In this document: positions 10,579 through 53,363 of the stretch, piece by piece | How positions within the stretch are numbered: the first letter of the stretch is position 1 | Layout of the letters: the number at the start of each line of letters is the position of its first letter | DNA from: Candidatus Binatia bacterium | GTDB lineage: Bacteria; Desulfobacterota; Binatia; UBA9968; JAJDTQ01 | Direction: 5' to 3' | NCBI GenBank assembly: GCA_963666515.2 | Contig: OY762897.2 | Location: forward strand, 1,728,001-1,792,000 | Length of the DNA: 64,000 bases | The notes under the pieces: model-generated | What the model saw: only the letters and a program-made list of their open reading frames with translations | What the model was told of the DNA's origin: nothing | The model's database searches: none | Translations under genes and position numbers: made by a program

Positions 10579-11660
<1,082 letters not shown>

Positions 11661-31608: not shown

Positions 31609-33048
31609 CTACCGCGCGCCCTTCAACCAATCGCCAAGGCGCCACTTCTCCCACGTGGCATCCCGCCGTTCCTTGCTGAACAGGTTCACCGGCGAGAACT
31701 CCTTCAACCGCTCGAAGGGGCGGCAGCCGTTGAGGATCAGGCGTCGGTAGGGAAGCGGCTTGCGGATCTCGCGCTCCTCCGCGGTGCGCAACGGGTCCAG
31801 CCGCCAGGCGCTCGGCACCGTGCTCTTGTGAACGCCCTCGCCGGCGTCCAGCCGCGTCCCCAGGGCCCAGAAGACCTCGATGGGGTCCTCGGGGTTCACG
31901 TCGTCGTCCACAAGGATGTTGATGCGGCAGGGGGCGCGGCTCTCCTGCAGCGCCTTGATGATGCGCGGCACGTCGTCGGGCGTCTTCTGGGCCACGCTCA
32001 CCACCACCGCGCCCATCTTGACCAGATCCGTGACCCGCGTCACCGGGAGCCCATCCTTCTCCAGCCGCGACCACAGACCGGTCATGGAGCGCATGGGCAG
32101 CGAGAAGGCATAGGACTCGCGGTACGGCTTGAACGGCGGCGCGCCGAACAGGATGGGGTCGTTGCGGTAGTAAAGAGCCGTCACGCGGATCACCGGCTCC
32201 GGCACCGAGGTGATCATGTAGTACCCGGTCCACTCGCCGAAGGGTCCCTCCTGACGGGATTCCACGTCGGGAGGCGGCACCTCGCCCTCGAAGGCAATCT
32301 CCGAACCGGCGGAGATGGGGAGGCCGGTCATGCGCCCCTTGATGACGTCCACGGGCTCGCCGCAGAGGAAGCCGACGTACTCGTACTCGGGCACGCCGGG
32401 CGGACAGCCGGTGGAGCCCGAGGCGGTGAGGAAAACCACCGGCTCCGGTGCCACCGACACCGCCACCGGGCACGCCTCGCCCTTGTCCCAGTACTTGCGC
32501 AGGATCGAGCTGCCGTCGTTGGCGGGCTCGCAGAAGAGCCCGGTGGTCTTGCCGTCGTGTACCTGGAGGCGGTAGCTGCCGAGGTTCACGAAGCCTGTGT
32601 CCGGGTCTTTGAGGATCACGGCGACGCCGGAGCCGATGTAGGGGCCTCCGTCCAACTCGTGCCAGACCGGCACCGGAATGCGGCCGAGGTCCGCGTCGTC
32701 TCCGGTCAGCACGTTCTCCAGCAGCGGGCTCGTGTCCACCACCCGCGGGGCGATGCCCCTGTAATCCGCCCACTTCGCCTTCCACGCACGCATGGCGTCG
32801 GCCTCGGGTGTGTCGGGGTGGGTGCCGATGGCCATCAGCGAGCGCTGCCGCGTGCTGGCCACGTTGGAGGCCACGCGGAACCCGGCGGGGTAGCCGGGGA
32901 TGTCGTCGAACAGGAGCGCCGGGCCGCGGTGGTGGAAGGCCATCTCGGCGATGCAGCCGATCTCGTACTCCAGGCTTGCGCCGTTCACCCGCTTGAGGTC
33001 GCCGCGGCGGTCCAGCTCTTCCAGGAACATTCTCAGGTCGGTGATCAT
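31609..33048 (-). CDS. UbiD family decarboxylase #2
   Basis: DGGPYIG, NLGSYR, EGPFGEWTGYY, VDDDVNP. Confidence 0.92.
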   Translation of the reverse strand: MITDLRMFLEELDRRGDLKRVNGASLEYEIGCIAEMAFHHRGPALLFDDIPGYPAGFRVASNVASTRQRSLMAIGTHPDTPEADAMRAWKAKWADYRGIAPRVVDTSPLLENVLTGDDADLGRIPVPVWHELDGGPYIGSGVAVILKDPDTGFVNLGSYRLQVHDGKTTGLFCEPANDGSSILRKYWDKGEACPVAVSVAPEPVVFLTASGSTGCPPGVPEYEYVGFLCGEPVDVIKGRMTGLPISAGSEIAFEGEVPPPDVESRQEGPFGEWTGYYMITSVPEPVIRVTALYYRNDPILFGAPPFKPYRESYAFSLPMRSMTGLWSRLEKDGLPVTRVTDLVKMGAVVVSVAQKTPDDVPRIIKALQESRAPCRINILVDDDVNPEDPIEVFWALGTRLDAGEGVHKSTVPSAWRLDPLRTAEEREIRKPLPYRRLILNGCRPFERLKEFSPVNLFSKERRDATWEKWRLGDWLKGAR

Positions 33049-33067
33049 GGCGCCGTCCCGCTCCGCG

Positions 33068-34192
33068 TCATCCGTTGAACCGGGGCATATCGACCTTCAC
33101 GCCGTGCCTGGCGGTCTCGGCATCGAAGATGCGGCGGATCTCTGGGTCCTCGTCTTCATACTCGATCTGTGTGCCGCCCTCGTAGATGGAAGTCGAGACG
33201 CCGCCCCGGGTGGCCGCCTTGCGCACGCCGAAGGGGTGCTTGGCGCTGCCGTTGCGAAGCGCCATCTGCAACGCCGGAATCCCCGTCACGTTGAAGTGCT
33301 GGTGGAACCAGTTGGTGGGCGGGCTGAACACGCTGCCCTCCTTCCAGTCCACCCGCACCACCTTGTCGCCCTTGCCGTCGGCGAAGGGCCTGGGACCCAG
33401 GTCGTTGGGCCACATGAGGCTGTAGCCCTCCGAGCTGAGGATGGTCAGGATCGCGCCGCCGCCGTGGTAGTGGGCCTTGGTGTAGCGGCCAGTGGGGAAG
33501 TTGGTGAAGTGACCGATGAGGCTGTTCTCACAGATCTCGAACTGGATATTGAGGTAGCCCGACCCCCGCCGTTCGTTCACCGGAAGCTCCACGGCCCGTG
33601 CGTCCGGTATGAAGTTGGTCTCCCATATCCAGCCGGGCCGGAACACGTCCTTGGAGCGCTTGTCCAGATCGAAGTAGTCCTTGCGTCCGTCGTAGCGGTC
33701 GTCGAACACCTTGTCGGTGTCGTAGATGAAGTCCTCGCGGTAGTAGAGGTCGAAGGCCAGCGGCGCCGTGTTGGTGGCCACAAGGAACGCCGGCTCCTTG
33801 CCCTTGTTGACGATGCGGTGGGTGGTGTTGAGCGGAATCGCGAACAGGCTCCCCTCCTTCCAGTTGACGGCGTTGGTGGCCTCGCCGGGACCCATGTACT
33901 CGGTCTCCCCCTCTCCCTTCATCACGTACACCACCTTCTCGTAGAGGTGCTTGTCCACGGTAGTGGAACCGCCCGGCGGAATCTCCATCACGTACATGCC
34001 GGTGATCCCCTCCATGCCCTTCATGTGCACGAATGAAGTGGGCACGCCCGTGCGGCTCCAGGTCTTGAGCGGATGCTCATGGAGGTTGGTGACGCCGTAG
34101 CCCTCGATGATCGGGATGTCCTGCGAGCGCATCCAGGTCACGTAGGGAGTCTCGCGCGTGCTCATCTGTCCCTTGGCCTTCTCCTCGCTCAT
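33068..34192 (-). CDS. Bicupin protein (gentisate 1,2-dioxygenase-like fold) #1
   Basis: HLYE..YV.KG.G and AHYHGGG...WFHQHFN cupin motifs; SD AAGGAG. Confidence 0.8.
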   Translation of the reverse strand: MSEEKAKGQMSTRETPYVTWMRSQDIPIIEGYGVTNLHEHPLKTWSRTGVPTSFVHMKGMEGITGMYVMEIPPGGSTTVDKHLYEKVVYVMKGEGETEYMGPGEATNAVNWKEGSLFAIPLNTTHRIVNKGKEPAFLVATNTAPLAFDLYYREDFIYDTDKVFDDRYDGRKDYFDLDKRSKDVFRPGWIWETNFIPDARAVELPVNERRGSGYLNIQFEICENSLIGHFTNFPTGRYTKAHYHGGGAILTILSSEGYSLMWPNDLGPRPFADGKGDKVVRVDWKEGSVFSPPTNWFHQHFNVTGIPALQMALRNGSAKHPFGVRKAATRGGVSTSIYEGGTQIEYEDEDPEIRRIFDAETARHGVKVDMPRFNG

Positions 34193-34212
34193 GGTCTCTC
34201 CTTGTTTACTCG

Positions 34213-34287
34213 CGCGGTAGGGGCCGCGTGAAACGGGCGGCAACGCCAATGCTTGCACGGGCCGGTTTGAAACCCGCCCCTACCGCG
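34213..34287. repeat. Inverted pair of GTAG-type REPs (family B)
   Basis: CGCGGTAGGGGC...GCCCCTACCGCG flanks; right copy matches the 20812 element. Confidence 0.7.
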
Positions 34288-34291
34288 TGAC

Positions 34292-35515
34292 TCATTCCCA
34301 TGACCGCACCTGATGCGACAGCTCGATCTCGCACCGTTCTTCCGCCGATTGGATCATGGCGAGGCACACTTCCAAAGTGGCCTCGCCCCAGCGCCCGTCG
34401 TGGGAGACGGGCCGCTCGTGGACCACGGCCTCGTACAGCTCCTGCACCTCGGCCTGACGGCCGGCCATGGCGTTCTCGATGGCCACCTCCCGCCTGCCTT
34501 CCGCTCCGTATACCAGAATGCCGTCCGCCGATTGCCGCAAATCGCCCTTCTCGCAACTGGCGACCGTGAGCCCGAAGAACTTCTGGTGCTTGCGGTCGGT
34601 GGCTGCGTGGCCCCTGCCCCAGATGTTCCAGATCTCGGGGTAGTTCTCGGACTGCTTGGCGCCGTAGCGCATCTGGTCCTTCTGCTCCTCCAGCGCCGCC
34701 TCGTCGCCCGAGACGCTGCGCAGGTTGGCGCGCATCTTGCGGTTGGTCTCCGGGTCGCGGTAGTAGCCGCCCTCGCCCACCCAGTCGTAAAGCTCGGCGG
34801 TGTCGAAGAAGCCGTAGCCGTTGTACACCAGCGTCGCCGGCACGCCGTCGTCGAACTCGAGGTAGCACACGTAGGCGCCTTCGCCCGGACGCAGGTCGTC
34901 CCATACTCCGGTCATGGCGCGTACGCTCCGCACCAGGCCGCCGCCCAGCAGGCGCACGATGTCCACCTGATGCGGCGCTTGGTTGAACAGGATGCCGCGG
35001 CTGGTAACAAGCTCATGGCGCGGCCAGGGCCGGTACATGAACTCGTTGAAGTTCCAGGTATTCACCATGCGCAAGGCGCCCAACTCCCCGCTCCGGATGA
35101 TCTCCCGCATCTTGCGGATGGGCGGATCGAAACTGTGGGTGTGGCCCGCCAGCAGCTTGAGTCCGCGCCGCTCCGCGGCCTCGTTCATGCGCTCGCAGTC
35201 TTCGATGGTGAGTGCGATGGGCTTCTCCACGATGGCGTGCTTGCCGTGCTCCATGGCCAGCAGCGCGTGCTCGGCGTGCATCTCCGGCGGCGTTGCCACG
35301 TAGACCGCGTCGACGTTGGGGCTCTTCACCAAGTCCCTGACGTCATTGTAGCCCTCCGCGCCGAATTCCTCCTGGAATTGCTCCAGCGCATCGTCCCGGG
35401 GATCGGCGGCCGCGGTCAGCTTGATGTGCGGCAGGTCGGTGATGCCGGGACGCTCGGTGAAGATCCGCGTCACCGCCATTCCCAGCCCGATGAATCCCAG
35501 CCTCAACGCCTCCAT
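34292..35515 (-). CDS. Gfo/Idh/MocA oxidoreductase (OphB/CbaB dihydrodiol dehydrogenase-like) #1
   Basis: GFIGLG, VEKP, GHTHSFD, NQAPHQVD, GRWGEATLEVC; start overlaps the Rieske stop. Confidence 0.88.
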   Translation of the reverse strand: MEALRLGFIGLGMAVTRIFTERPGITDLPHIKLTAAADPRDDALEQFQEEFGAEGYNDVRDLVKSPNVDAVYVATPPEMHAEHALLAMEHGKHAIVEKPIALTIEDCERMNEAAERRGLKLLAGHTHSFDPPIRKMREIIRSGELGALRMVNTWNFNEFMYRPWPRHELVTSRGILFNQAPHQVDIVRLLGGGLVRSVRAMTGVWDDLRPGEGAYVCYLEFDDGVPATLVYNGYGFFDTAELYDWVGEGGYYRDPETNRKMRANLRSVSGDEAALEEQKDQMRYGAKQSENYPEIWNIWGRGHAATDRKHQKFFGLTVASCEKGDLRQSADGILVYGAEGRREVAIENAMAGRQAEVQELYEAVVHERPVSHDGRWGEATLEVCLAMIQSAEERCEIELSHQVRSWE

Positions 35516-36789
35516 CAACGTGCGTCCCGCGACTCCCCTTCCAGCCCCCGGTGGTATTCCTTCCAGTTCATCCCGTCCGGCAGGAAGCCGTAGGTGGAGA
35601 GGATGGTGAAGCGGTTGGCTTCCGGCTCCCGCACAACGTTGGCAGGGTCGCGCCCCTGCTCCACGTCGACCATGCCCTTGAGCAGCACCTTGCGCGAGGC
35701 CACGATGGGGGCGTCCGACGCCACCAAGTGCTCTTGAGTGCGGTCCTGGATGGCGGCGCTCTCGGTGACGCACAGGTCCTGGGCCTGAAAGACGTGGCCG
35801 ATACCGCTGTAGCTTTCCGTGTTCATGGAGTCACGGTCCTGGAGATAGCGGTTGGCCTTGTTGCGCAGCGACTTGTAGCTCGGATCGGTAGCCTGCCGCT
35901 CCCGCAGCACCGCTTCCTTGTCCAGGGCGCGCTCGCGGTTGAAGATCAACACGTACTTCCAGTGGTTCTCGTCGTCGATGGGGACGTGCCAGTTCACGGT
36001 GTAGCCGCGCCCGCCCTCCTGGCGCGCGGGCACCGCGCACAGGTTGGGCATGATGAAGGTGCAGGAGCGGATGTAGGTGCGGTCCGGCGGCACCTTGCGG
36101 AGCTTGCAGACCCTCAGGCCCACGTCCACCAACTCCGCGTCCGTGGTCTCGGCGCCCGGCGCCCCGCCTCTGGAACTGAGGCCATTGGCGCCGCCGTGAA
36201 CCGTGTTGGCCTGCACGTCCCGGTCGGTGTAGTGCAGGATCGACACGTGCAGCAGGTCGATGTTGCCTTCGTTCCCCTGCAGGTAGTTACACTCGCTGTA
36301 GAGCTTGGTGCAGAAGACCTGCTCCTCCGGCAGGGTGAGGAACTCGTAGTTGGGCAACAGCGGCGGCTCCCCCGGCCCCATGTAGGCGAAGATCAGCCCC
36401 ACCCGTTCGACGCACGGGTAGGCCGGCTGGCGGATCTCGCTTCGGTGCGGGCCGCCGCCGGGCTCGCCGGGCTGGTCCAGGCAGTTGCCGTGGATGTCGT
36501 AGAGCCAGCCATGGTAGATGCACCGGAGCCCGCCGTCCTCCACCCGGCCGTAGCTCAGGTCCGCGCCCCGGTGGCAGCAGTGGATGCCCAGCAGTCCGGG
36601 GCGCCCCTGGTCGTCCCGGAACAGCACCATGTCCTCACCAAGGAGCCGAACCGGCACGGGCGCGCCGCCGGGCGGCAACTCCTCCGACAACGCCACCGGC
36701 TGCCAGTAGCGCCGCATCAACTCGCCGCACGGGGTTCCCGGCCCCACCCGTGTCAATCGGTCATTCTCTTCCTGCAACATGATCGTCAC
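35515..36789 (-). CDS. Rieske non-heme iron oxygenase alpha (phthalate 4,5-dioxygenase/LigXa/CbaA family) #1
   Basis: RVGPGTPCGELMRRYW; CxH...CxYH; EGNID.LH...LH; QD. Confidence 0.92.
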   Translation of the reverse strand: MTIMLQEENDRLTRVGPGTPCGELMRRYWQPVALSEELPPGGAPVPVRLLGEDMVLFRDDQGRPGLLGIHCCHRGADLSYGRVEDGGLRCIYHGWLYDIHGNCLDQPGEPGGGPHRSEIRQPAYPCVERVGLIFAYMGPGEPPLLPNYEFLTLPEEQVFCTKLYSECNYLQGNEGNIDLLHVSILHYTDRDVQANTVHGGANGLSSRGGAPGAETTDAELVDVGLRVCKLRKVPPDRTYIRSCTFIMPNLCAVPARQEGGRGYTVNWHVPIDDENHWKYVLIFNRERALDKEAVLRERQATDPSYKSLRNKANRYLQDRDSMNTESYSGIGHVFQAQDLCVTESAAIQDRTQEHLVASDAPIVASRKVLLKGMVDVEQGRDPANVVREPEANRFTILSTYGFLPDGMNWKEYHRGLEGESRDAR

Positions 36790-36841: not shown

Positions 36842-37810
36842 TCAGGCGTCCGCTCCCTCCGGCTCCCAGTAGCCCGCTCCCATACCCATGACGGCGCTGT
36901 AGAAGGGCTGATAGTGGAGGAACGTCGGTCGCACCTTGCCCACGGCCCCCAGAAGCGTGATCCAACTGCGCATCTCGATGCCGCCGTTGTCAAGCAGATC
37001 CCGCGAGGTCAACTGCTCAAGCCTGTCGCCTTCCCCTTCCCTCATCGACTCCAACGCCTTCCGGTCGAACTCCTCGCTGATGGATCCGACGCCATGGGGC
37101 CCCGAGTAGTGCTTCCACGGATAGCCCGCGGTGAAGTGGGACAGGCCGCCCGACGCGTAGACGGCTACCCGCTCGTCTCCCGGCCGGCTCTCGATGATCT
37201 CGCGCATGGCCGCGCCCAGACGGTAGCAGCGCCTGGGGCTCGGCGCCGGCACGTGGATGGCGTTCACGAACACCGGCACCACGGGAATGTCCGCGTCCGG
37301 AAGGACCCGGCGCATGATCGGGCCGTGGGCATGAGAAAGCAACTCGTCCTTGGGAAAGGCGCTGCAGGAGGCCACGTCGAACTCGCGGTCCACCAGGCCG
37401 TTGAGGAGGTCCTGAGCCAGGTCCGCGTGGCACGGGTACTTCGGTCCGCGCAGCCGCGAGCCGTCGCCCGCCCGCTCGGTGGTATGGATCTCCGCGCCCG
37501 TGTAGACGGCGATCTGCGGCAGGTTGTCCTCCGTGAAGTTCTCGTCCTGGTCGTCGCCCACGATGATAACGGCGTCCGGCCGCTGCTCCCGCATCTGCCG
37601 CTCGAAGAACGCCAGCGACTCGCGGATGTGCCGGTAGCCCCTCTCCCGCACCTCCGGAGTCTCGTCCACGATGTTGGGATGAAGCTCCGGCTCCACGCCG
37701 TAACGCGCCTTGTACCGCGCCCGCGTCCGCCCCCGCATCACGTCCCACCCCGTCGGCTCCACCAATGCGTAGGCGTGGGAGGACGCCATCGCGGCAATGA
37801 TCCTGCCCAT
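36842..37810 (-). CDS. Class III extradiol ring-cleavage dioxygenase (LigB fold, DesZ-like)
   Basis: SSH, GDDQ.ENF, SGGLSHF, GIEMRSWI. Confidence 0.82.
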   Translation of the reverse strand: MGRIIAAMASSHAYALVEPTGWDVMRGRTRARYKARYGVEPELHPNIVDETPEVRERGYRHIRESLAFFERQMREQRPDAVIIVGDDQDENFTEDNLPQIAVYTGAEIHTTERAGDGSRLRGPKYPCHADLAQDLLNGLVDREFDVASCSAFPKDELLSHAHGPIMRRVLPDADIPVVPVFVNAIHVPAPSPRRCYRLGAAMREIIESRPGDERVAVYASGGLSHFTAGYPWKHYSGPHGVGSISEEFDRKALESMREGEGDRLEQLTSRDLLDNGGIEMRSWITLLGAVGKVRPTFLHYQPFYSAVMGMGAGYWEPEGADA

Positions 37811-37943: not shown

Positions 37944-39577
37944 TCAATCCGCATCGGCGTCTCCGGTAAGGTTGCGGCTCTTGCGCAAGAGCCGTTCGGC
38001 CGCCTCGTCCATGCGTCCCGCCTCGGACAGCGCCACCAGCTCGGCCTCACCTTCCGGCCAGTGGCCCAGGGAGACGCCGTGCCACGGCGCCTTGGGTCTG
38101 AGGGGCGGCAATTCCAGCTCTTCCCAAAGCTCCCGGGCGCGTTCCATGTAGTCCCGGCGCGGCAGCGAGATGGGCGGATTGGCCCACTTGCGGGTGGCGT
38201 CCATGAGCATGGCGGAGGCCCCCTGGGGGCCCGTCAGGGAGGTCGGGTAGCCGCGCGGATGCCGCCGGGAGCGTCCCGCGGCCCCACCGACTCGTCCAGC
38301 CCGGCGCTCCTGCCCTGGATGACCTTCAGGTCCCGGTGCGGCTGGTACCGGTTGGTGACGGCCCAGAAGACCGATTCCAGGTCCCAGGGATCGATGTCGT
38401 CGTCCACCCCGATGACGATCTTGGGCCAAGCGGCGTCCGCGGACATGACCGTGAACAACGCGTGCCACACCTTGCTGTTGGGCGTGCGCACCCCGGCTAC
38501 GTCGTGGAAGCGCACGACGCACAGGTTCTTGGCGCTGCCGCAGTCGTGGAACGCCACGTCCTTGACCTGGGAGATGCCGTGGGCGCGCAGCAGCGCCGTG
38601 ACGTGTCCCTCGCTGTTGACGCAGCGCATCACGCTGGATTCGCTCGGCGGGAGCTGGCAGATCACGTCGTGCCAGATGGGGTCACGGCGGTGGGTGATGC
38701 AGGTCACCTCGAAGGCGTGGACCCAGTGGCCCGGCATCACGTGGCCGCGGTTCTCGCCGCTGGGGCCGTCGAGGTCCATGATGTCGATGGGGATGGCGCC
38801 TTCGATGACCACCTCCGCGGTGGCGGGCACCAGGAGGTCCGAGGTCTCGCACTCCACCACCGGGATGGCTTCGCCGATGAGCCCCCCGGCAGCGTCGAAC
38901 TCGGACACGCTCTGGGGCACGTTGGTGGCGGCCACCAGCGACAGCACCGGCGGCACCCCCACGGCGATGGCGGCCGGCAGCGGCTCACCCCTGGCCCGGC
39001 ACTTCTCCCAGTGCCGGCGCAAATGGCGCGCGGTGCGCACGTTGGCCCGGCCGGCGCCCAGCACGATGCTGTTGTACATGCCGGCGTTGAGATGACCCGA
39101 GTCGGGATCACGGGTGATGCAGGAGGCCGCGGTGACCCGCGGGAACGCCTCCCAGCCGTTGGTAGCGAACGGTATGCCGAACTCGTGCAGCCCGCCGTGC
39201 TCCAGAAGCCCGTCGCCCTTGTGGACCTCTTCCTTCACCGGCCCGGTGGCGACGCGCTCGGGCGGGATAAGCCGGTCCAACGCGTGGGACCAGCGCTCGT
39301 GCAACTCGTCTACGGAACACCCCATCGCCAGCGCGTACATCGCGCGGTTGGCGGCGATCACCGACGACGCGACACGGCCGTTACAGGGCCGTCCGTCGCG
39401 GTCGGTGACGTTCTCGAACAGGAAGCCGAACCGCTCATCCTCGGCAAGGCCCCGGTACTGCCATTTGACCAGCGGATGCAGTTCCCGGTCCTTGTCCACG
39501 GCGCGTCCGATGCGGCGCAGCCAGCCCTTGGCTTCGAGCGCGTCCAGGTACTCGCGGAAGTCTGCGTAGTAGCCCAT
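37944..39577 (-). pseudogene. UbiD family decarboxylase #3, frameshifted near 38251-38260
   Basis: N-part from ATG 39577 stops at 38234; UbiD-type tail (SAMLMDATRKW...RARELWEEL) continues in another frame to 37944. Confidence 0.8.
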
Positions 39578-39602
39578 GGTAGACAATGGGTTCAGGCCGG
39601 CG

Positions 39603-40406
39603 TCATTCGGCTCCCCCATCCCCTCGGCCCCTCGCCAGCAATGCCTCAAGCTCCGCAACCCGAGCTTGCGCCGCCTCCGCCGCCCGCTGCGCCTCCTGCC
39701 GTGCCTGTTTCTCGCGGTCTCGTTCCTGTTCAACCCGATTCCGCTCCTGCTCGACCAATTGGCGCACCCGTCTTTCGTGCTGCCAACCCTGCTCGGTGCG
39801 CCTTCGCGTCTCGTTCGATTCCGCAAGGTTCAGCAGGTACTCCCCCGTGGCCACATCGTGGAACCGCAACCCCCCGCTCCCCAACCGCAACTCCAGCCCC
39901 AGCACCCGGCTCCACATCACCGACCCGCCGTCCGCCAACTCTCTCCCTGCCAATCTACTGTACTCCCCCGACACCAACTCCTCGCCCTGCAGCCGGGGCG
40001 CCAGATAGTCTCCCGTGGGATCGTATTGCCAGTACTCCGTCACTCCAAGCTCCCGATACAGATCCCGCTTCCTTCCCTGGTCTTCCCGCCGCGTGCTCCG
40101 CGACGTCACCTCCAGCACCCAGTCCGGCCCCTTCGGCTCCCGCCACAACAGGTACGAAGACCGGTCATGGGCCGGCGCCCCGAACACTACGAACACATCC
40201 GGCGCCACCCGCGCCTTCACGTTCCCCTCTTCGTAGTAGATCAGCAGGTTGCCGGCCACGTACACGTCGGATCGGTGGCGGTAATAGTCACGCAGGGCGT
40301 TGCGCGCGTAGGCGAGCGGATCGAACTGAAAATCGCTCTCCGCCAACGGCATGCCGTCGGAACTTGGATAGCCGATTTCGACCGGAACGGGCGCATGTTT
40401 TACCAT
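39603..40406 (-). CDS. Uma2 family PD-(D/E)XK endonuclease with coiled-coil tail (copy 2)
   Basis: YPSSDG.PLAES, APDVFVV, PDWVLEVTS, GVTEYWQYDP. Confidence 0.9.
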   Translation of the reverse strand: MVKHAPVPVEIGYPSSDGMPLAESDFQFDPLAYARNALRDYYRHRSDVYVAGNLLIYYEEGNVKARVAPDVFVVFGAPAHDRSSYLLWREPKGPDWVLEVTSRSTRREDQGRKRDLYRELGVTEYWQYDPTGDYLAPRLQGEELVSGEYSRLAGRELADGGSVMWSRVLGLELRLGSGGLRFHDVATGEYLLNLAESNETRRRTEQGWQHERRVRQLVEQERNRVEQERDREKQARQEAQRAAEAAQARVAELEALLARGRGDGGAE

Positions 40407-40481
40407 GGCTCAGCCTCCATGAAGACCCCTAACACATCGGCGCATCCTGGGCAAAAAGACGTTCCCGCATCGAGTCCAGCG

Positions 40482-41385: not shown

Positions 41386-42486
41386 CTAACCCCTGCTTCC
41401 CTGGTCCAGCGGCTCCAGCCGCACGGTGACGCCGTTCTTCTCCAACTCGCGGTTGTACTCCTCCCGGATGGAAGGGTCTTCCTTCTCGTAGCGGATCTTG
41501 AACGACTCGGCGAAGGGGTCGGTGTCCTGGGCGGTGCGGGCCGGATGGAAGCTCCGGCCGGAGCCGTAGCGCAACCCGGTGCCCCGGAACGCCAGCATCC
41601 GGTACCCGCCCTTGCCGCTGTTGAAGTGTTGGTGGAACTCGTTGGTGCGGGGCGCCACCACGGCGTAGGGAACGGTCGGGACCTTGCGGCGCTCCTTCTC
41701 CTGCCCCGGCATGAACATCAACTCGTAGCCTTCGCCGCCGATGACGATGACGTGGGCGCCGGCGCCGTGCCGGTGGGCCGTCACGTAAGTCCCCTCGGAC
41801 GCCTCCATGATGTGCATGCCGATGGAACAGCTCGCCATGGACAGGCGCATGATGGCCGTGCGGTTGCCGCGCTCGGGATAGGGGTCGAGTCTGAAGGTGC
41901 GGATGTCGGGGATGAAGTTGGTCTCGAAGAGCCGCAGATTCCACTGCCGGCCCTCGTCGGTGAAGAAGTCCGGCATGGACATGGAGAAGCGATCCGTGAA
42001 CGAATATGGGTTATTAAAGACGAAATCGAGATTATGATAGAGGTTTATGACGTGCGCCGCATTGGTGCCGAACAGCAGCCGGCAGGGCTCGTCCCCGGAG
42101 CTGTTGAACTCCTGGTGCCAGGCATTCAGCGGGATGGACAGCAGCGACCCCTCCTCCCATTCCACGGTGTGCTTCTTCTCACCCTCCTGCCAGATGACGG
42201 AGGCGCCGCGTCCCTGCATCACGTACATGATCGCGTCATAGATGTGGTGCTCAGGCTTCAACTCACCCTTGGGCGGGATCTCGACAATCTGGAGGCTGTT
42301 GGTCTCCTGCTCCCCGAGGCGTGTGTAGGCGGCCTTGCCGCCGCGCCGCTCCCACTCGCCCAACTCCAGGGTGTTGAGATTCTCCAACGCGCTGCCCTCG
42401 TAGAGCGGCACACCCTCCTGCTTCACGAATGCCTGGTAGGAGCTCTTGACGTACCACTGATCGAAACCGGGACGCGCATCCGACAT
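41386..42486 (-). CDS. Bicupin protein #2 (paralog of 33068-34192)
   Basis: EHHIYD..MYV..G.G, IPLNAWHQ, ETNFIPD, AHRHGAG, FHQHFN. Confidence 0.8.
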   Translation of the reverse strand: MSDARPGFDQWYVKSSYQAFVKQEGVPLYEGSALENLNTLELGEWERRGGKAAYTRLGEQETNSLQIVEIPPKGELKPEHHIYDAIMYVMQGRGASVIWQEGEKKHTVEWEEGSLLSIPLNAWHQEFNSSGDEPCRLLFGTNAAHVINLYHNLDFVFNNPYSFTDRFSMSMPDFFTDEGRQWNLRLFETNFIPDIRTFRLDPYPERGNRTAIMRLSMASCSIGMHIMEASEGTYVTAHRHGAGAHVIVIGGEGYELMFMPGQEKERRKVPTVPYAVVAPRTNEFHQHFNSGKGGYRMLAFRGTGLRYGSGRSFHPARTAQDTDPFAESFKIRYEKEDPSIREEYNRELEKNGVTVRLEPLDQGSRG

Positions 42487-42544: not shown

Positions 42545-43339
42545 TCAGCCGCTGTCCCGCTTGGAACGCACCGGCTTGCCAGCACGCACGTCCTGGGTGA
42601 ACTGCTCCGCGGCCTCCAGGAGCGCCACCGCCACCGGGCCGTAGTTGGAGCGGCGCCGGTCCAGCTCGTCCGCTGCCAGGCCGATGGTGGGATGGGTCAC
42701 GCCGATCTGGCCGTCACAGTGGTCCCCGGCGCCGAAGCCGGCGATAGTGGGCACCCGCACCTCCGCGGTGATCCGCTGCGCCAGTTCCGCGCTGATACCA
42801 GTGAGCAGGAGCGAGAACGATCCCGCCTTCACCAGTTCCCGGGCGTCACGCCACACCTGCTCCTCGTCCACCGAGCTGGAACGGAAATCGCCCGCGCCGA
42901 TGTTGGCCATGGGCGTGCTGCCCATGTGCGCCAGCACCGGAATGCCCGCCTTGACGAGGGCCGCCACCGTGGAGGCGTACTCGGCTCCCACCTCCAGCTT
43001 CACCGCCTGGACCCCGGCCTCCTGGATGAGCCGGCCGGCATTGACGACGGCCTGCTCGTCGTTCACCTGGTAGCTCATGAACGGCATGTCCCCCACCACC
43101 AGGGCCCGGTCGGAGCCGCGGGCAGCGGCCCGCGCCATTATGACCATCTCGTCCACGGTGACCTCGTTGCTGTCGTCGTGGCCGAGGGCGTACCGCCCGC
43201 CGCTGTCCCCCACCAGGATCACGTCCACGCCCGCCCGGTCGACGATGCGCGCCACGGTGTAGTCGTAAGCGGTCATGACGACGATCTTCTGCTTCTCCGC
43301 CTTCATCCGCTGCAAATCCACGATCGATACTCTGCTCAT
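42545..43339 (-). CDS. PanB-like (ketopantoate hydroxymethyltransferase fold) protein, divergent
   Basis: TAYDY, VGDS, GDMPFMSY, VKLE, GAG..CDGQ present; the Glu181-equivalent position reads LLLTG. Confidence 0.85.
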   Translation of the reverse strand: MSRVSIVDLQRMKAEKQKIVVMTAYDYTVARIVDRAGVDVILVGDSGGRYALGHDDSNEVTVDEMVIMARAAARGSDRALVVGDMPFMSYQVNDEQAVVNAGRLIQEAGVQAVKLEVGAEYASTVAALVKAGIPVLAHMGSTPMANIGAGDFRSSSVDEEQVWRDARELVKAGSFSLLLTGISAELAQRITAEVRVPTIAGFGAGDHCDGQIGVTHPTIGLAADELDRRRSNYGPVAVALLEAAEQFTQDVRAGKPVRSKRDSG

Positions 43340-43378
43340 GTTCACCTCTCTGAATCCATCATTTCTCCCGCCCTGATC

Positions 43379-43479
43379 CGTCATTCCGGCGGAAGCCGGA
43401 ATCCAGGGGTGGGGCGAGACAATAGGGGCGTGATTTCCCGCACCACCCCGTCTGGATTCCGGCTTTCGCCGGAATGACG
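43379..43479. repeat. Family A REPIN-like element
   Basis: CGTCATTCCGGCGGAAGCCGGAATCCAG ... CTGGATTCCGGCTTTCGCCGGAATGACG. Confidence 0.85.
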
Positions 43480-43501
43480 TTTTTGCGGCCTCAGTACCAT
43501 T

Positions 43502-44707
43502 TCAACATCCCACTTGGTGCGACATGTACACCTCGCGCCGTTCCTTCGCCGATTCCAGCACGCCCAGACACACCTCCAGGGTCGCCTCTCCCCAACGGCC
43601 GTCGTGGAACGGCTGGCGGTCGTGGAGGATGGCGTCGTGGAACTCGCGCAGTTCCGCCTCCCGGCCGCGGGCACCCTGCTCCACCGGTATCTCGCGGCGG
43701 CCGTGGTCGTCATAGATGTAGAGGCCGTCTCGGGATTGGCGGATCTCGCCCTTCTCGCAGGTCACCACGGTGAGGCCGAAGAACGGTTGGTGGCGCGGTC
43801 CGGCTTCGGACTCGGTCCCCGGCCCGCCGCCGGCGGCGCCATAGCGCCACGCCTCCAGCTTTCGCTCCAGTCCGTCGCTGCGCTCGGCCCCCTCGCCGAG
43901 GCTACGGAAGAACGCCCTCGCCTTGGGGTGCCTGTCGGGGTCCTTGGGAAGGCCACCCTCGCCGAGCCCCCATACCAACTCGGCGGTGTCGAAATAGGCA
44001 TAGCCGCTGTACACCAGGCTCGCGGGCACGCCGTCTTCGAACTCCAGGTGACAGGCGTAGTGTCCCTCGCCTGGACGCGTGGGGTCGCCAATCCCCGCCG
44101 TGGCCCGGACGCTGCGCACGAGCCCGCCCCCGATCAGCCGCACGATGTCGAACTGATGCGGCCCCTGGTTCAGCACGACGCCGCGGCTCATGCGGATGTC
44201 GTGGTCGGAGAAAGGCCGGTACATGTGGTCCTTGTAGTAGGCGGTGGAGATCATCAACAGCTTCCCCAACTCGCCGCCGGCCACGACCTCCGCCATCTTC
44301 CGCACCGGCGGATCGAAGCTGTGGGTGTGGCCCGACATGAGCTTGACCCCGTGCCGGTCGGCCGCGGCGTTCATGGCCTCGGCCTCGTCCAGCGACAGCG
44401 CCATGGGCTTCTCGACGATCACGTGCTTGCCCCGCTCCATGGCGGCGATGGAGTGCTCGGCGTGGTACTCGTGGGGCGTGGCGACGTAGACGGCGTCCAC
44501 ATCCTCCCTGTCGCACAGTTTTTGCACCGAGTCGAACGTCCGCGCGCCGAACTCCCGTGCAAACCTGTCCAGGGCTTGCCTGCGAAGGTCGGCGGCGCCT
44601 GTGAGCCGCACGAAAGGCAACGGCGCTATCTCCGGCAGGATACGGGCCGCGGCCATGCCGAGGCCGGCGATTCCGAGCCGCAGCCTGGTGTCCGCGCCTT
44701 CGCTCAT
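43502..44707 (-). CDS. Gfo/Idh/MocA oxidoreductase (OphB/CbaB-like) #2
   Basis: GIAGLG, VEKP, GHTHSFD, NQGPHQFD, GRWGEATLEVC; ATGA overlap with the Rieske gene. Confidence 0.88.
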   Translation of the reverse strand: MSEGADTRLRLGIAGLGMAAARILPEIAPLPFVRLTGAADLRRQALDRFAREFGARTFDSVQKLCDREDVDAVYVATPHEYHAEHSIAAMERGKHVIVEKPMALSLDEAEAMNAAADRHGVKLMSGHTHSFDPPVRKMAEVVAGGELGKLLMISTAYYKDHMYRPFSDHDIRMSRGVVLNQGPHQFDIVRLIGGGLVRSVRATAGIGDPTRPGEGHYACHLEFEDGVPASLVYSGYAYFDTAELVWGLGEGGLPKDPDRHPKARAFFRSLGEGAERSDGLERKLEAWRYGAAGGGPGTESEAGPRHQPFFGLTVVTCEKGEIRQSRDGLYIYDDHGRREIPVEQGARGREAELREFHDAILHDRQPFHDGRWGEATLEVCLGVLESAKERREVYMSHQVGC

Positions 44708-46002
44708 GGAGTCGCCAGGGTCTGCCAGCCCCGCCCTTCGGCCACGAGGTGCTCCAGGTAGTCCTGCCATGGCGTGGCGCTCGGGATCACGCCGTAGGTC
44801 GCCACGATCTCGGGGAAGCGGTTGGCCTCGGGGTCCCGGACCACATGGGGCGGATCGTTGCCGTCCTCAACGTCCTTGATGGCCTTGATCAGCACCTTGC
44901 GCGACGCCACGATGGGGATGTCCGACTCCACCAAGTGCTCGTTGGTCCGATCCTGCACCAGCCCGGCCCCCTCCACCACGCACAGGTCCTGGATCGGGTT
45001 GGGGTAGTCGATGCCGCTGTAGACTCGGTCCTGCATGAGGCTCCGGTCCTGACCGTAGCGGTTGGCCTTGCTCGCCATCGGCCGGTAGTCCGGCGCCGGC
45101 GCCCACTGGCTGGCGCGCATGGTGGCGGCCTCCCTGTCCAGCGCCTTCTCGCGGCTGAAGGTGATGACGTACTTCCAGTGGTGGGTGTCGTCGATGGGCA
45201 CGTGCCAGTTGATGGCGCCGCCGGGAATGACCGTCATGCTCGGCAGCACGAAGGTGGCGGCGCGGATGTAGTTCCGTTCGTCATCCATGCGCCGCACCTT
45301 GCAGATGCGGATGCCCAGGTCCAGGAGCTGGGCGTGGGTCCGCTCCGTGCCGGGCGACGGCCCGCGCCCGTTGACCCGTTCCACGTCGCCGAACCGGTCC
45401 CGTATCTTCCGCACCTCCTCCTCGCTCATGGCGGAAAGGTCGCGCTTCACGAAGTGCAGATAGTTGTTGTGGAAGATGTCGATGTTGCCCTCGTTGCCCT
45501 GGAGGTAGTTGCACTCGCTGTAGAGCTTGGTGGGCGCCACCTGATCGTCCGGCACCGTCAGCCAGTCGTAGGCGGGCAACAGCGGCGGCTCGCCGGGGCC
45601 CGTGTACGCGAAGATGATCCCGCTCTTCTCGCGGCACGGGTAGGCGGGCTGGCGGATGGCATCGCGGTGCTCGCCGCCGTTGGGTTCTCCAGGCTGGTCC
45701 AGGCAGCGCCCTTCGATGTCGTAGAGCCAGCCGTGATAGATGCAGCGGAGGCCGCCGTCCTCCAGGCGGCCATAGCTCAGGTCCGCGCCACGGTGGGCGC
45801 AGTGGATGCCGAGCAATCCCGGCCTGCCCCGGTCATCCCGGAACATGACGAGGTCCTCGCCCAGGAGCCTCACGGGGAGCGGCGGGCCGCCGGGCGGAAG
45901 CTCCTCGGAGAGCGCCGCCGGCTGCCAGTAGCGGCGCATAAGCTCGCCGCAGGGTGTGCCGCGGTCGGTCCGGGTCAGTAGTTCATTCTCGCCGCTGTCC
46001 AT
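44704..46002 (-). CDS. Rieske oxygenase alpha (phthalate 4,5-dioxygenase family) #2
   Basis: GTPCGELMRRYW, CAHRG...CIYHG, EGNIDIFH...LH, IQD; SD AGGAG. Confidence 0.92.
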   Translation of the reverse strand: MDSGENELLTRTDRGTPCGELMRRYWQPAALSEELPPGGPPLPVRLLGEDLVMFRDDRGRPGLLGIHCAHRGADLSYGRLEDGGLRCIYHGWLYDIEGRCLDQPGEPNGGEHRDAIRQPAYPCREKSGIIFAYTGPGEPPLLPAYDWLTVPDDQVAPTKLYSECNYLQGNEGNIDIFHNNYLHFVKRDLSAMSEEEVRKIRDRFGDVERVNGRGPSPGTERTHAQLLDLGIRICKVRRMDDERNYIRAATFVLPSMTVIPGGAINWHVPIDDTHHWKYVITFSREKALDREAATMRASQWAPAPDYRPMASKANRYGQDRSLMQDRVYSGIDYPNPIQDLCVVEGAGLVQDRTNEHLVESDIPIVASRKVLIKAIKDVEDGNDPPHVVRDPEANRFPEIVATYGVIPSATPWQDYLEHLVAEGRGWQTLATP

Positions 46003-46034: not shown

Positions 46035-47504
46035 TCAACGCGATAGCAGATGGCCCCACTTGGCGCGGATCTTCTGCCGCAGCTCCGGGCCGTTGACGCA
46101 CACGGGCGGGAACGCATCGATCCAGTCGTAGGGACGGCACGCGTCGATGACGAGGTTGTGCGCCGTGTAGGAGGCGCGGCCGTGGGCCGCGTCGGGGTTC
46201 GAGCGCTCCTCCGGTGGTATGCGCGGGTCCAGTTGCCAGACCGCGGTGCCGGGAATGACCTGCACGCCCTCCTCGGGGCGGCACCGGCTGGCCACCGCCC
46301 ACAGCACCTCCTTCGCATCGGTGACGTCGATGTCATCGTCCACGATGATCCAGGTCTGGTGCCCGTTGTAGCGGTCGCCGCCAGGCACGAGCACCCTGAT
46401 CACGTCGCGGACGTGGTCTCGGTACATCTGCTCCACGGCGACGGCGTAGAGGTGCGGCCGCGCCAGGGCCACGATCCGGCCGATACCGGGTATGCCGGCC
46501 TTCTCCAGGCGCTGCTTCGCCTCGAGGTTGTCGCCCCCGAGACTGGCGAAGTAGTCGCACCCCACCGGCCGCGTGGGCGAGGCGCCGAAGATGATGGGGT
46601 CGTTACGGTGATAGACCGCATGCACCTCGATACGCGTCTCGGGCCGGCGGCCGTGGGCGTAGTAGCCGGTCCACTCGCCGAACGGCCCCTCGGGCAGGAG
46701 GCCTCCGTCGGCATCGTCCGGGGACGGGATGAAGCCCTCGATGACTATCTCCGCGGCGGCCGGCATGGGCAGCCCGGTAACGGCGCCCGGTATGACCGGA
46801 TAGGGGCTGCCGTGCAGGTAGCCGGCCACCTCGAACTCCGACACCCCCTCCGGGGTGCGGTAGACGCTCGACGAGCCCAGCGCGGTCAGCACCGGCTCCT
46901 GGCCCACGGAGATGAGCACCGGGCACTTCTCGCCCCGGTCCCAGTACTTGCGGCGGATCACGTCGCCGTGCTTCCCGTGCTCGGTGAAGATGGTGCATGT
47001 GGACTTGTCGTGGACCGCCACGCGGTAGGCGCCGGAGTTGACGAATCCGCTGTCAGGGTCTTTCTGGATGACGCAGACGCCGGTGCCGATGTAGCGGCCG
47101 CCGTCGTTCTCGTGCCACTTGGGCGTGGGGAACTTGAAGAGGTCCACCGCGTCCCCGGTCATCACGTTCTCGAGGACGGGTCCGCCGGAGACTTCCTCGG
47201 GCGGCGTCGCCCGAAAGTCCTTGAGCTTCCGGGCAAAACGCTCCGCCACTCCGTCGATGGAAGGCTCCAGCGCGATGCCCAAGGCAGTGGCCGTGCGCTT
47301 GGGGGTGTTGAACAGGTTGACCGCGACCCGGTAGCCCTTGGGGTAGTCCCGGATCTCGTCGAACAGGAGCGCCGGCCCCCGCTGCTCGGTGACCAGCTCG
47401 GCGATGCCGCCGATCTCCTCCTGCCAGTCGCACCCCAGCACCGTTTCCAATTCGCCCAGCTCATCCAGCCTGTGCAGGTACTCCCGAAGATCGTTCCAGA
47501 GCAT
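46035..47504 (-). CDS. UbiD family decarboxylase #4
   Basis: DGGRYIGTG, NSGAYR, EGPFGEWTGYY, VDDDID...WAVASR, IDACRP. Confidence 0.92.
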   Translation of the reverse strand: MLWNDLREYLHRLDELGELETVLGCDWQEEIGGIAELVTEQRGPALLFDEIRDYPKGYRVAVNLFNTPKRTATALGIALEPSIDGVAERFARKLKDFRATPPEEVSGGPVLENVMTGDAVDLFKFPTPKWHENDGGRYIGTGVCVIQKDPDSGFVNSGAYRVAVHDKSTCTIFTEHGKHGDVIRRKYWDRGEKCPVLISVGQEPVLTALGSSSVYRTPEGVSEFEVAGYLHGSPYPVIPGAVTGLPMPAAAEIVIEGFIPSPDDADGGLLPEGPFGEWTGYYAHGRRPETRIEVHAVYHRNDPIIFGASPTRPVGCDYFASLGGDNLEAKQRLEKAGIPGIGRIVALARPHLYAVAVEQMYRDHVRDVIRVLVPGGDRYNGHQTWIIVDDDIDVTDAKEVLWAVASRCRPEEGVQVIPGTAVWQLDPRIPPEERSNPDAAHGRASYTAHNLVIDACRPYDWIDAFPPVCVNGPELRQKIRAKWGHLLSR

Positions 47505-51409: not shown

Positions 51410-52438
51410 TTACCCCGTCCCCTGCTCTTTCTCCTTCGCCAAGCCCATGGCGATCTCCACCAGGATATCTTCCTGGCCGCCCACCGCTTGGCGCTTGCCC
51501 ACCTCCACGAGGACATCGCGCGGGTCGACACCGAACTGGGCGGCGGCCTTGTCGGCGTGGAGCAGGAAGCTCGAGTAGACGCCGGCGTAGCCCATGGTCA
51601 GGCTGGTCTTGCCGATCCGCACGGGCTTCTGCATCAGCGGCTTCACTATCTCCTCGGCCACGTCCATGATCTTCCAGAGGTCGATGCCGGTCTCGTACTT
51701 CCCGAGCTTGTCGAGCACGGCCACCAGCACCTCGGTGGGAGTGTTGCCGGAGCCGGCGCCCAGGCCGCATGTGCAGGCGTCGAGCCAGCGGGCGCCCTCC
51801 TCGATGGCCACCAGGCTGTTGGCCATGGCCATGGACAGGTTGTTGTGGCCGTGGAATCCCACGCCGATGTCGATGGCGTCGCGTAGCGCCCTCACCCGCT
51901 CGCGCACGGTGGGAGGCAGCAGCGCACCCGCGGAATCGGTCACCAGCACCACGTCGGCGCCGTAGCTCTCCATGAGCTTCCCCTGCTCGGCGATCTTCTC
52001 GGGAGAGCCCATGTGGGAGAGCATCAGCATGCCGATGACCTCCATGTCCATCTTCTTGGCCAGCTCGATGTGCTGCTCGGAGACGTCGGCCTCGGTGACG
52101 TGGGTAGCGATCTGCGCCACCTGCGCGCCCATGTCCCTGGCCCGGGCCAAGTCGTCCTTGGTGCCGATGCCCGGCAGCAGCAACACCGCCAGCTTGCCCC
52201 GGTCCACCACGCCCGCGGCAGCGTCCAGCAACTCGAACTCGGACTGTTTTGAGAAGCCGTAGGTGATGGTGGAGCCGCCGAGCCCGTCGCCGTGGGACAC
52301 CTCGATGATCTCGACGCCGGCGTCGTTCAGCCCCTGGGCCACCCGGGCCACCTGGACCGCGGTGAGCTGGTGGCTCAGGGCGTGGCTGCCGTCCCGTAGC
52401 GTGCTGTCGAGGATGTGGATGTGGTTGTCGTCGCTCAT
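51410..52438 (-). CDS. dmpG: 4-hydroxy-2-oxovalerate aldolase
   Basis: DSTLRDGSH, EVSHGDGLGG, LLLPGIGT, HGHNNL, GYAGVYSSFL. Confidence 0.95.
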   Translation of the reverse strand: MSDDNHIHILDSTLRDGSHALSHQLTAVQVARVAQGLNDAGVEIIEVSHGDGLGGSTITYGFSKQSEFELLDAAAGVVDRGKLAVLLLPGIGTKDDLARARDMGAQVAQIATHVTEADVSEQHIELAKKMDMEVIGMLMLSHMGSPEKIAEQGKLMESYGADVVLVTDSAGALLPPTVRERVRALRDAIDIGVGFHGHNNLSMAMANSLVAIEEGARWLDACTCGLGAGSGNTPTEVLVAVLDKLGKYETGIDLWKIMDVAEEIVKPLMQKPVRIGKTSLTMGYAGVYSSFLLHADKAAAQFGVDPRDVLVEVGKRQAVGGQEDILVEIAMGLAKEKEQGTG

Positions 52439-52449
52439 GGCGGTCTCCC

Positions 52450-53349
52450 TCAGCGCTTGCGCCAAGTCCCGGCCCGGAGATGCCTGCCGATCTCCTCGCC
52501 TACCCGCACTGCGGCCGCGGTCATGATGTCGAGGTTGCCGGCGTAGGGCGGCAGGTAGTCGGCGGCGCCTTCCACTTCCACGTAGACGGTGACCTTCTGC
52601 TTGCCTTCGGGCATGTCCTCCACCAACGGCTCGGCCCGGAGCCGGTAGCCGGACACGTACTCCTGAATGCGCCGCACCATGTCCGCAAGGGCCTGACGGA
52701 TGCGTTCCGGGTCCGCCGGCTCGAGCATCCCGTACACGGTGTTGCGCATGAGGATCGGCGGCTCGGCCGGGTTGAGCACGATCACCGCCTTGCCCCTGGC
52801 CGCCTTGCCGATTTTCTCCAACCCGCGGGCGGTGGTGTCGGTGAACTCGTCGATGTTCTGCCGGGTACCGGGTCCGGCGCTCCTGCTGGCGATGGTGGCG
52901 ACGATCTCGGCGTACTCCACCGGCGCGCACGCGCCCATGGCGCTCACCAGCGGCACGGTGGCCTGCCCGCCGCAGCTCACCAGGTTCACGTTGGGCTCGC
53001 CCACGTGGGCGTCGAGGTTGACCAGGGGAATGACGTAGGGTCCTACCGCCGCGGGAGTCAGATCGACGGCGACCTTGCCGGCCTTCTTGAGGAGCGGCGC
53101 GTGCGCGGCGTGGGCCCTTGCGGTGGTGGCGTCGAACACGATCTCGAAATCGCCGGCGTGCTCCAGGAGGCCGTCGATGCCCTCGTAGGTCGTCGTCAGC
53201 CCTTCCCGGCGCGCCCGCGCGAGGCCGTCCGACTCGGGAATGATGCCGGCCATCACCGTGGGCTGGACGGTGTCGCTGCGCAGGAGCTTGTACATGAGGT
53301 CCGTGCCGATGTTGCCGGAACCCAGAATAGCTGCGCCGGTCTTCTCCAT
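52450..53349 (-). CDS. dmpF: Acetaldehyde dehydrogenase (acylating)
   Basis: [43 protein letters not shown]. Confidence 0.95.
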
Positions 53350-53363
53350 GCCCGTGTCCTCCC

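Follow-up and report, generated by a model that had tools for sequence, protein, structure and literature searches.

What does a homologue of ketopantoate hydroxymethyltransferase (PanB) do among genes for aromatic catabolism, when the glutamate of its active site has been replaced? We addressed this question for a gene in a 64,000-nucleotide stretch of the Candidatus Binatia contig OY762897.2 (assembly GCA_963666515.2, positions 1,728,001 to 1,792,000), hereafter the window. The gene, at 42545..43339 of the window on the minus strand, encodes a 264-residue protein that keeps the ligands for the metal and the 2-oxo acid and carries threonine where E. coli PanB has Glu181. We call it the PanB-like gene, and the group of relatives that share the substitution the Thr-clade. 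The window gene is very probably not a pantothenate enzyme, and we give a probability of roughly 45% to the reading that the Thr-clade protein is an accessory enzyme of aromatic-acid catabolism, an Mg-dependent 2-oxo-acid C-C lyase acting on a carboxylated ring-fission product. The broader statement, that the clade works in aromatic-acid catabolism, is likely to be correct.

A PanB-family protein with threonine at position 181

The longest open reading frame (ORF) over the gene spans 42545-43384 on the minus strand and has 279 residues. The true start is the ATG at 43339, giving the 264 residues already proposed by the first-pass annotation, because a Shine-Dalgarno-like GAGAGGTGA, read from the sequence at 43342..43350 (minus strand), precedes it and because database homologues and same-genus orthologues all start there. 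By sequence and predicted fold, the protein is a member of the PanB family. It matches Pfam PF02548 (Pantoate_transf) with 270.7 bits against a cut-off of 28.7 and falls narrowly short of PRK00311 (270 against 272). A sequence search of the PDB returned five PanBs only, the best being the M. tuberculosis enzyme 1oy0 (E 4.9e-52), with E. coli PanB 1m3u at E 7e-39. An AlphaFold2 model built on an alignment with 57 relatives had a predicted local distance difference test score (pLDDT) of 92.1, and its top Foldseek match was 1oy0_A (E 2.8e-25, template modelling (TM) scores of 0.86/0.91), in keeping with the (beta/alpha)8 fold of PanB.

Equivalences to E. coli residues were read along the HMMER alignment to 1m3u. 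In the numbering of the 279-residue ORF, the ligands D45, D84, K112, E114 and H136 correspond to D60, D99, K129, E131 and H153; all are retained, and so is S46. E181 (lvlEc) is replaced by T195 (lllTg; T180 in the 264-residue numbering) and M215-H216-D217 by T230-H231-P232, and Pro, Phe and Ser stand at the positions of D217, I202 and T57, respectively. The same alignment bears out what the first-pass annotation had read at these sites, namely five retained ligands, LLLTG in place of LVLEC and THP in place of MHD. In PanB, Glu181 is the general base that removes the C3 proton.

The substitution extends well beyond the window. The best 120 matches among 5.8 billion clustered proteins are 53-96% identical to the window protein, and a MAFFT alignment of these with the query has Thr at position 195 in 119 of the 121 rows, with one Ser and one His. 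When 121 clade sequences were compared with 79 canonical ones, E. coli position 181 was Thr or Ser in every clade row and Glu in all 79 canonical representatives. The ligands D45, S46, D84, K112, E114 and H136 are conserved at 99-100% in the 121 clade members and are kept in the canonical set too. Besides E181 (100% conserved among canonical sequences), the clade has lost D217 (96%), I202 (92%; Phe or Gly stands there instead) and T57 (87%), and position 213, mostly Leu in canonical PanBs, is Gly in 92 of the 121. Residues new to the clade are, in E. coli numbering, Gly47 (99%) and Arg49 (88%), which together give a GDSGGR motif, and Asp206 (95%). In the numbering of the window protein they include Arg258 near the C-terminus (96%) and Gly-Pro at 234-235, and one residue has been inserted ahead of G201. 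According to PMC7610986 and PMC7611260, variants at I202, I212 and V214 of E. coli PanB enlarge the active site and broaden its substrate scope. The altered pocket and the new arginines of the clade would fit a substrate that is different and more acidic. No non-Glu form was seen in the PDB, where the search gave five PanB sequences and alignments for three of them.

Threonine at position 181 is a conserved feature of the clade, with no sign of decay: Thr or Ser is near-universal among the relatives, these forms make up one well-supported clade, and the ratio of nonsynonymous to synonymous substitution rates (dN/dS) is low. A maximum-likelihood tree (quick method, no bootstraps) was built from 77 rows comprising clade members from databases and genomes, non-Glu clusters and 30 random representatives. 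It placed all Thr and Ser forms in a single clade of 37 rows (34 T, 2 S, 1 G) with a Shimodaira-Hasegawa-like approximate likelihood ratio test value of 99 and a stem of 0.42; the remaining 40 rows were canonical. Comparison of the PanB-like gene with six same-genus orthologues gave dN/dS of 0.06-0.21 at dS of 0.31-0.48, which is unsaturated. In a library of representatives at 50% identity, the core group is covered by a single full-length cluster (P0020, 392.6 bits), and the next full-length match falls to 229 bits and 47% identity; the 105-row alignment from this library has 88 E, 7 T and 3 G at the Glu181 position, the remainder being singles or doubles. On these sequence comparisons, the Thr-clade appears to be a neofunctionalised PanB subfamily.

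Pantothenate synthesis has its own gene in this genome. A canonical panB (392 bits against Pfam; motifs VVLEG, TPQS and VHD), whose product is 42.7% identical to the window protein, is paired with panC at 2.953-2.955 Mb of contig C1, 1.18 Mb from the window copy. The adjoining panC (C1:2953190-2954014) is the sole Pantoate_ligase match of the genome. The PanB-like gene is therefore neither linked to panC nor the only copy, the two features by which a pantothenate role would have been recognised, and the first-pass statement that neither panC nor panD lies nearby holds: no PF02261 (PanD) match was obtained anywhere in the genome, which is 98% complete, despite the presence of panB and panC. Beta-alanine may arise by another route in this organism. 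All 13 carrier genomes checked, namely the window genome (G000), G1093, G1095, G648, four same-genus carriers of the phylum sample and five genomes of a second phylum, retain canonical PanB. G1093, G1095 and G648 each have a separate canonical-scoring match, the four same-genus carriers have two matches each, and each of the five second-phylum genomes also has a PanB of 364-395 bits.

The Thr-clade is rare and patchy. In a sample of 301 genomes of the window's class, 10 genomes from three families carry a PanB-like gene, and in an eleventh (G648) the copy is cut by the contig start. Within the window's genus, the gene is present in 8 of 26 genomes. A second-phylum sample of 401 genomes, centred on a genome titled Dehalococcoidia, contained five carriers; the sources name clade members Chloroflexota. 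In the 401-genome sample of the window's phylum, none but the window genome scored above the canonical level (at most 303 bits, against 461). Among the best 80 loci of a genome-contig scan with the single protein, two (L004 and L005, titled Candidatus Binatia) were close and the other 78 were canonical at up to 49% identity. The best 80 loci of a metagenome-contig scan with the clade alignment comprised one clade member (L131), one more distant Thr form (L132) and otherwise canonical genes. A search of the ESM Atlas leaving out PF02548 gave no usable match.

Some genomes hold several family members. The second-phylum genomes G718, G754, G787, G841 and G1039 have three to four PanB-family genes each: one canonical (364-395 bits), one Thr-clade copy (265-280 bits) and one or two that are more divergent (143-232 bits), so that the family seems to have radiated further there. 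In the window's class, G434 (loci L125 and L126) has three Thr/Ser-clade copies of 506, 401 and 336 bits, two of which lie 6 kb apart and have different neighbours (binding-protein, LigB, Gfo or bicupin genes).

Genes that accompany the Thr-clade

On the minus strand of the window, the genes run in the order UbiD_a, Rieske_a, Gfo_a, PanB-like, bicupin_a, two Uma2 genes, UbiD_b, LigB, Rieske_b and Gfo_b, followed by bicupin_b, UbiD_c, an alpha/beta hydrolase, an ABC transporter, RidA and UbiD_d. A lower meta-pathway of DmpG/DmpF/DmpE-like genes, two Amdase-like genes, a molybdenum hydroxylase and two Amidohydro_2 genes are also nearby. With the separate canonical panB, these neighbours agree with the first-pass view of a repurposed PanB paralogue in a catabolic gene set.

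Directly upstream, Gfo_a (43502..44707, minus strand) is by Pfam a Gfo/Idh/MocA dehydrogenase resembling phthalate cis-4,5-dihydrodiol dehydrogenase, and its best solved relative is the "4,5-dihydroxyphthalate dehydrogenase" 7wzd (E 1.5e-81, full length). Before it stands the Rieske_a oxygenase (44704..46002, minus strand), with Rieske and LigXa_C domains and a likeness to phthalate 4,5-dioxygenase; its best solved relatives are 7fjl (232 bits) and 7fhr, a "putative phthalate 4,5-dioxygenase" (200 bits). UbiD_a (46035..47504, minus strand) is a UbiD-family decarboxylase. The Rieske stop overlaps the Gfo start in an ATGA-type arrangement in both cassettes of the window (44704-44707 and 35515-35518), which suggests that dioxygenase and diol dehydrogenase are translationally coupled.

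On the other side, 58 nt downstream of the PanB-like gene, bicupin_a (41386..42486, minus strand) encodes 366 residues with Cupin_2 and Cupin_1 domains from an ATG at 42486 with GGAGG. It is probably a metal-dependent ring-cleaving or related enzyme; a search of PDB sequences gave no match at E up to 0.001. The bicupin family has seven copies in the window genome at E up to 1e-60 and 2-9 per genome of the genus. It is an uncharacterised family that recurs with Rieske-Gfo pairs, with no more than a faint NCBIfam likeness to 5-aminosalicylate dioxygenase. The LigB gene (36842..37810, minus strand) encodes a LigB-type (class III) extradiol dioxygenase that scores 93.5 bits to Pfam LigB and, in NCBIfam, falls below every cut-off; its best solved relative is the beta chain of protocatechuate 4,5-dioxygenase (1b4u_B, 6e-16).

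This context was compared across 15 Thr-clade copies, drawn from various genera or samples and viewed in fetched stretches of up to 10 kb: that of the window, one in L125, two in L126, and those of L127-L131, L132 and L216-L220. At least one of LigB, a LigXa_C-type Rieske gene, a phthalate-type Gfo gene, UbiD or bicupin lies nearby at 13 of these 15 sites. A LigB-family gene is present at 10 sites and is the immediate neighbour at six (the second copy in L126, L127, L128, L129, L131 and L220); the neighbouring LigB genes belong to the same orthogroup as that of the window, with 46-64% identity. Of its partners, the LigB-type extradiol dioxygenase thus accompanies the PanB-like gene most steadily across lineages, ahead of the Rieske gene. 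Of the 301 genomes sampled from the class, 12 have the LigB orthogroup: both genes are found in 10 genomes (G648 counted), LigB alone in two (G596, where it has an in-frame TAG, and G668), the PanB-like gene alone in one (G586, a 450-contig assembly) and neither in 288.

Further genes occur in two of the loci. In L220, a Chloroflexota locus, an EutA-like (reactivase-type) gene at 9905-11566 separates Gfo from the bicupin. Both L219 (14513-16690) and L220 (12789-14858) have hydantoinase/oxoprolinase A or B genes close to the PanB-like gene.

The remainder of the window island contains more genes of the same types. A second cassette without a PanB-like gene (31609..36789, minus strand) consists of Rieske_b (35515-36789), Gfo_b (34292-35518), bicupin_b (33068-34258) and UbiD_c (31609-33048). 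UbiD_b, another UbiD-family decarboxylase (38234..39826, minus strand), probably has its true start near 39577. In all, four UbiD-family genes lie within 23 kb (24579-47504), each under the NCBIfam equivalog cut-offs. An alpha/beta hydrolase (30568..31440, minus strand) shows weak likeness to the meta-cleavage-product hydrolases HsaD and BphD. The lower meta-cleavage pathway (51410..54155, minus strand) comprises a DmpG-like aldolase (51410-52456), an acetaldehyde dehydrogenase (52450-53520) and a DmpE/DmpH-like hydratase or decarboxylase of the fumarylacetoacetate hydrolase (FAH) family (53364-54155). The two tandem Uma2-family genes (39603-41306), putatively restriction endonuclease-like, occupy the site of an alpha/beta hydrolase gene in the close relatives L004 and L005, and the pair looks like an insertion or replacement within the catabolic operon.

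Between Gfo_a and the PanB-like gene lies a near-perfect palindromic repeat of 96 nt (43385..43480, minus strand), with a predicted RNA fold of -61.6 kcal/mol (z -8.1). We considered it as an attenuator or terminator of the PanB-like gene and rejected this: it is a genome-wide repeat resembling repetitive extragenic palindromes or miniature inverted-repeat transposable elements, with 68 and 75 occurrences of its 12-nt arm on the two strands of contig C1 and 209 blastn-short matches. The repeat also causes a depth spike at 43222-43629 in public sequencing runs.

Contigs from two marine metatranscriptome runs of one study match the PanB-like gene, bicupin_a, Rieske_a and UbiD_a at ~92%. They belong to a relative and share their variant letters with a sponge-metagenome run. 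This cover is a weak hint that the relative's cassette is expressed, as DNA carry-over is possible; stretches without cover carry no weight either way.

Proposed reaction and competing explanations

PanB binds 2-oxoisovalerate through Mg2+ and forms its enolate. We propose that the Thr-clade left pantothenate synthesis and was recruited to aromatic-acid catabolism, its protein still binding a divalent metal (Mg2+ or another) and, through its 2-oxo-carboxylate end, the substrate, in the manner of PanB. Without the Glu base, the same metal-bound enolate would be reached by breaking a bond between C3 and carbon, whether by beta-decarboxylation of a 3-carboxy-2-oxo acid of the oxaloacetate type, by retro-aldol cleavage, or by retro-Claisen or hydrolytic acylpyruvate cleavage. 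The substrate would be a carboxylated 2-oxo or 2-hydroxy-dienoate ring-fission product made by LigB or the bicupin. A Glu at position 181 would repel a C3 carboxylate and Thr would not, and the two new Arg residues would suit additional carboxylates; the clade-specific Asp206 and Arg residues are predicted to line the metal site. The dihydroxy-aromatic compound to be cleaved would come from the enzymes further upstream, namely phthalate-type Rieske dioxygenases, cis-diol dehydrogenases and UbiD decarboxylases. A C-C lyase is suggested by an intact metal and 2-oxo-acid site, an absent base and aromatic gene neighbours, and carboxylated aromatic acids by the upstream genes for a phthalate-type dioxygenase, a diol dehydrogenase and UbiD. 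That the reaction is specifically a decarboxylation is rather doubtful. Tentative, and less likely than not, is the further idea that a new enzyme function arose within the PanB family, an Mg-dependent beta-decarboxylase or C-C lyase that works without the base and has one particular LigB-type dioxygenase as its partner. The two would make up a new route for degrading carboxylated aromatics (phthalate-like, or humic and lignin-derived acids), the extra carboxyl not being removed first, in the window's class and in Chloroflexota.

Several observations weigh against the lyase reading. We infer the reaction type, like the substrate class and the kind of bond cleaved, from the missing base and the gene neighbours. 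The NCBI equivalog model for panB, TIGR00222, accepts the protein (214.6 against a cut-off of 207.55). Within the genus, the PanB-like gene is the least conserved of its own cassette, at 87% identity against 91-97% for its neighbours. No gap in the pathway is demonstrated, because the ordinary lower-pathway steps could be handled by other proteins of the island: a DmpG aldolase, one DmpE/DmpH-like protein, alpha/beta hydrolases and a pair of Amidohydro_2 proteins. Nor can a missing aldolase be argued, since one RraA-like (LigK-like) gene and one PrpF gene, both far from the island, and HpcH/HpaI copies exist elsewhere in the genome. Two of the 15 sites show none of the aromatic genes: L219, with NMT1-type binding proteins, IclR and hydantoinase, and L132, with MarR and an amidohydrolase. 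No LigB gene was found in the fetched stretch of three Chloroflexota loci. Finally, the genomes in which LigB and the PanB-like gene co-occur are kin (about five genera), so the counts overstate independence, and we treat the co-occurrence as a consistent pattern and attach no statistic to it.

The best-surviving alternative, although improbable, is that the protein acts on the ring-fission product as an isomerase or enol-keto tautomerase: it would bind the 2-hydroxy-dienoate or 2-oxo-enoate through the metal and shift a proton, leaving all C-C bonds intact. The retained metal-enolate site and the adjacency of LigB at 6 of 15 sites would suit such an enzyme, and no 4-oxalocrotonate-tautomerase-like gene was noticed among the annotated genes of the island; small ORFs, where a gene of that size would sit, lay outside this screen. 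However, proton transfer at C3 is the job of the very Glu that the clade has lost.

A little less probable is a second true ketopantoate hydroxymethyltransferase with another base, for example Asp206, which might tolerate aromatic hydroxy acids and thereby safeguard CoA synthesis while the cells grow on them. Acceptance by TIGR00222, the complete set of metal and 2-oxo-acid ligands and the new conserved Asp in the beta7 loop speak for it. So does PMC3937715, where a Rhodococcus PanB is described as induced by salicylate and older work is cited for inhibition of PanB by salicylate. The Rhodococcus protein nevertheless has canonical peptides and falls outside the Thr-clade. Moreover, the whole clade lacks both Glu181 and Asp217, which are conserved at 100% and 96% in the 79 canonical sequences; its pocket differs at I202 and L213, and it has acquired Arg residues. 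The gene is also patchy within its genus (8 of 26 genomes) and never near panC.

The first-pass annotation had suggested a repurposed aldolase or lyase, or a one-carbon-handling enzyme that removes a hydroxymethyl group from a 2-oxo acid or traps formaldehyde released by an adjacent LigXa-like Rieske O-demethylase. The lyase or aldolase type is also what we arrive at by inference; nothing found here points to the one-carbon role, which we consider very unlikely. The PanB fold would suit it, PanB being able to add formaldehyde to 2-oxo acids according to PMC7610986, and the neighbouring Rieske proteins do bear a LigXa_C domain. Yet the best solved relatives of Rieske_a are of the phthalate 4,5-dioxygenase type and its gene overlaps a cis-diol dehydrogenase gene, so that the pair looks like a ring-dihydroxylating dioxygenase with its diol dehydrogenase, which speaks against the demethylase assignment and disfavours a formaldehyde trap. 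Drawing an enolate from a 2-oxo acid would also require the absent base, and the clade is tied more tightly to LigB than to Rieske genes.

Least probable of all is a pseudo-enzyme without catalytic activity, which would act as a scaffold or as a regulatory subunit, perhaps of LigB. The loss of a key catalytic residue and the adjacency to LigB at 6 of 15 sites favour it, but metal ligands conserved at 99-100% in 121 sequences, new conserved polar residues and dN/dS of 0.06-0.21 speak against it.

Relation to known enzymes and significance

Compared with canonical PanB (EC 2.1.2.11; 1m3u, 1oy0), the window protein has the same fold and ligands and 37-38% identity to the solved enzymes. It differs in the replacement of Glu181 by Thr, the loss of Asp217 and the changes of I202 to Phe (Phe or Gly in the clade) and L213 to Gly; the clade as a whole differs in the insertion before G201 and in the new Gly47, Arg49, Asp206 and Arg258. 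Its gene is accessory in catabolic clusters, a canonical copy always being kept alongside in the genome. The E. coli ketopantoate hydroxymethyltransferase is described, in PMC7610986 and PMC7611260, as a tetrahydrofolate-independent class II (metal) aldolase that adds aldehydes to 2-oxo acids. A PanB scaffold is therefore capable of metal-enolate C-C chemistry on varied 2-oxo acids. Those are laboratory reactions with Glu181 in place, whereas in the Thr-clade positions 202 and 213 have changed and the base has been lost naturally.

The next-best Foldseek matches of the model belong to the phosphoenolpyruvate (PEP) mutase/isocitrate lyase superfamily (3fa3, 3b8i, 1pym and 1ujq among others; E 1e-9 to 1e-10, TM 0.59-0.66), with the PA4872 oxaloacetate decarboxylase 3b8i at E 2e-9. 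Members of this superfamily, such as PA4872, 2,3-dimethylmalate lyase (3fa3) and methylisocitrate lyase, share the barrel and a divalent-metal site at the C-terminal strand ends, and they carry out Mg-dependent C-C cleavage beside a metal-bound 2-oxo or 2-hydroxy acid, the chemistry that we propose for the clade. Identity is only 13-19%, and the match to Pfam PEP_mutase (PF13714), confined to residues 25-133, is under the cut-off (26.6 bits against 31.5). Because the window protein is phylogenetically a PanB, any likeness in reaction would be convergent within the superfamily.

After extradiol cleavage, the usual enzymes are 4-oxalocrotonate decarboxylase DmpH, 2-hydroxy-3-carboxymuconate semialdehyde decarboxylase DhbB and the 4-carboxy-4-hydroxy-2-oxoadipate/4-hydroxy-4-methyl-2-oxoglutarate aldolase LigK. 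They catalyse metal-dependent decarboxylation or retro-aldol cleavage of ring-fission 2-oxo acids on FAH, amidohydrolase and RraA-like folds. Relative to these, the Thr-clade proteins would be functional analogues of unrelated fold.

A search of the searchable literature returned nothing on such a PanB paralogue; PMC3937715 concerns a canonical PanB. The sources name clade members 3-methyl-2-oxobutanoate hydroxymethyltransferase, a name that is probably wrong for the whole clade. As a rule for annotation, a protein should not be called PanB if E. coli position 181 is Thr or Ser and if it also has the GDSGG motif and the clade-specific Arg49.

If the Thr-clade proteins are C-C lyases acting on aromatic ring-fission products, they would offer a clear natural case of a vitamin-biosynthesis enzyme that entered catabolism by losing its base and having its pocket remodelled. 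For the engineering of PanB into 2-oxo-acid aldolases they would provide a naturally occurring scaffold of another shape, and they would add an extra step to the little-known aromatic-acid metabolism of uncultured Candidatus Binatia relatives and Chloroflexota.

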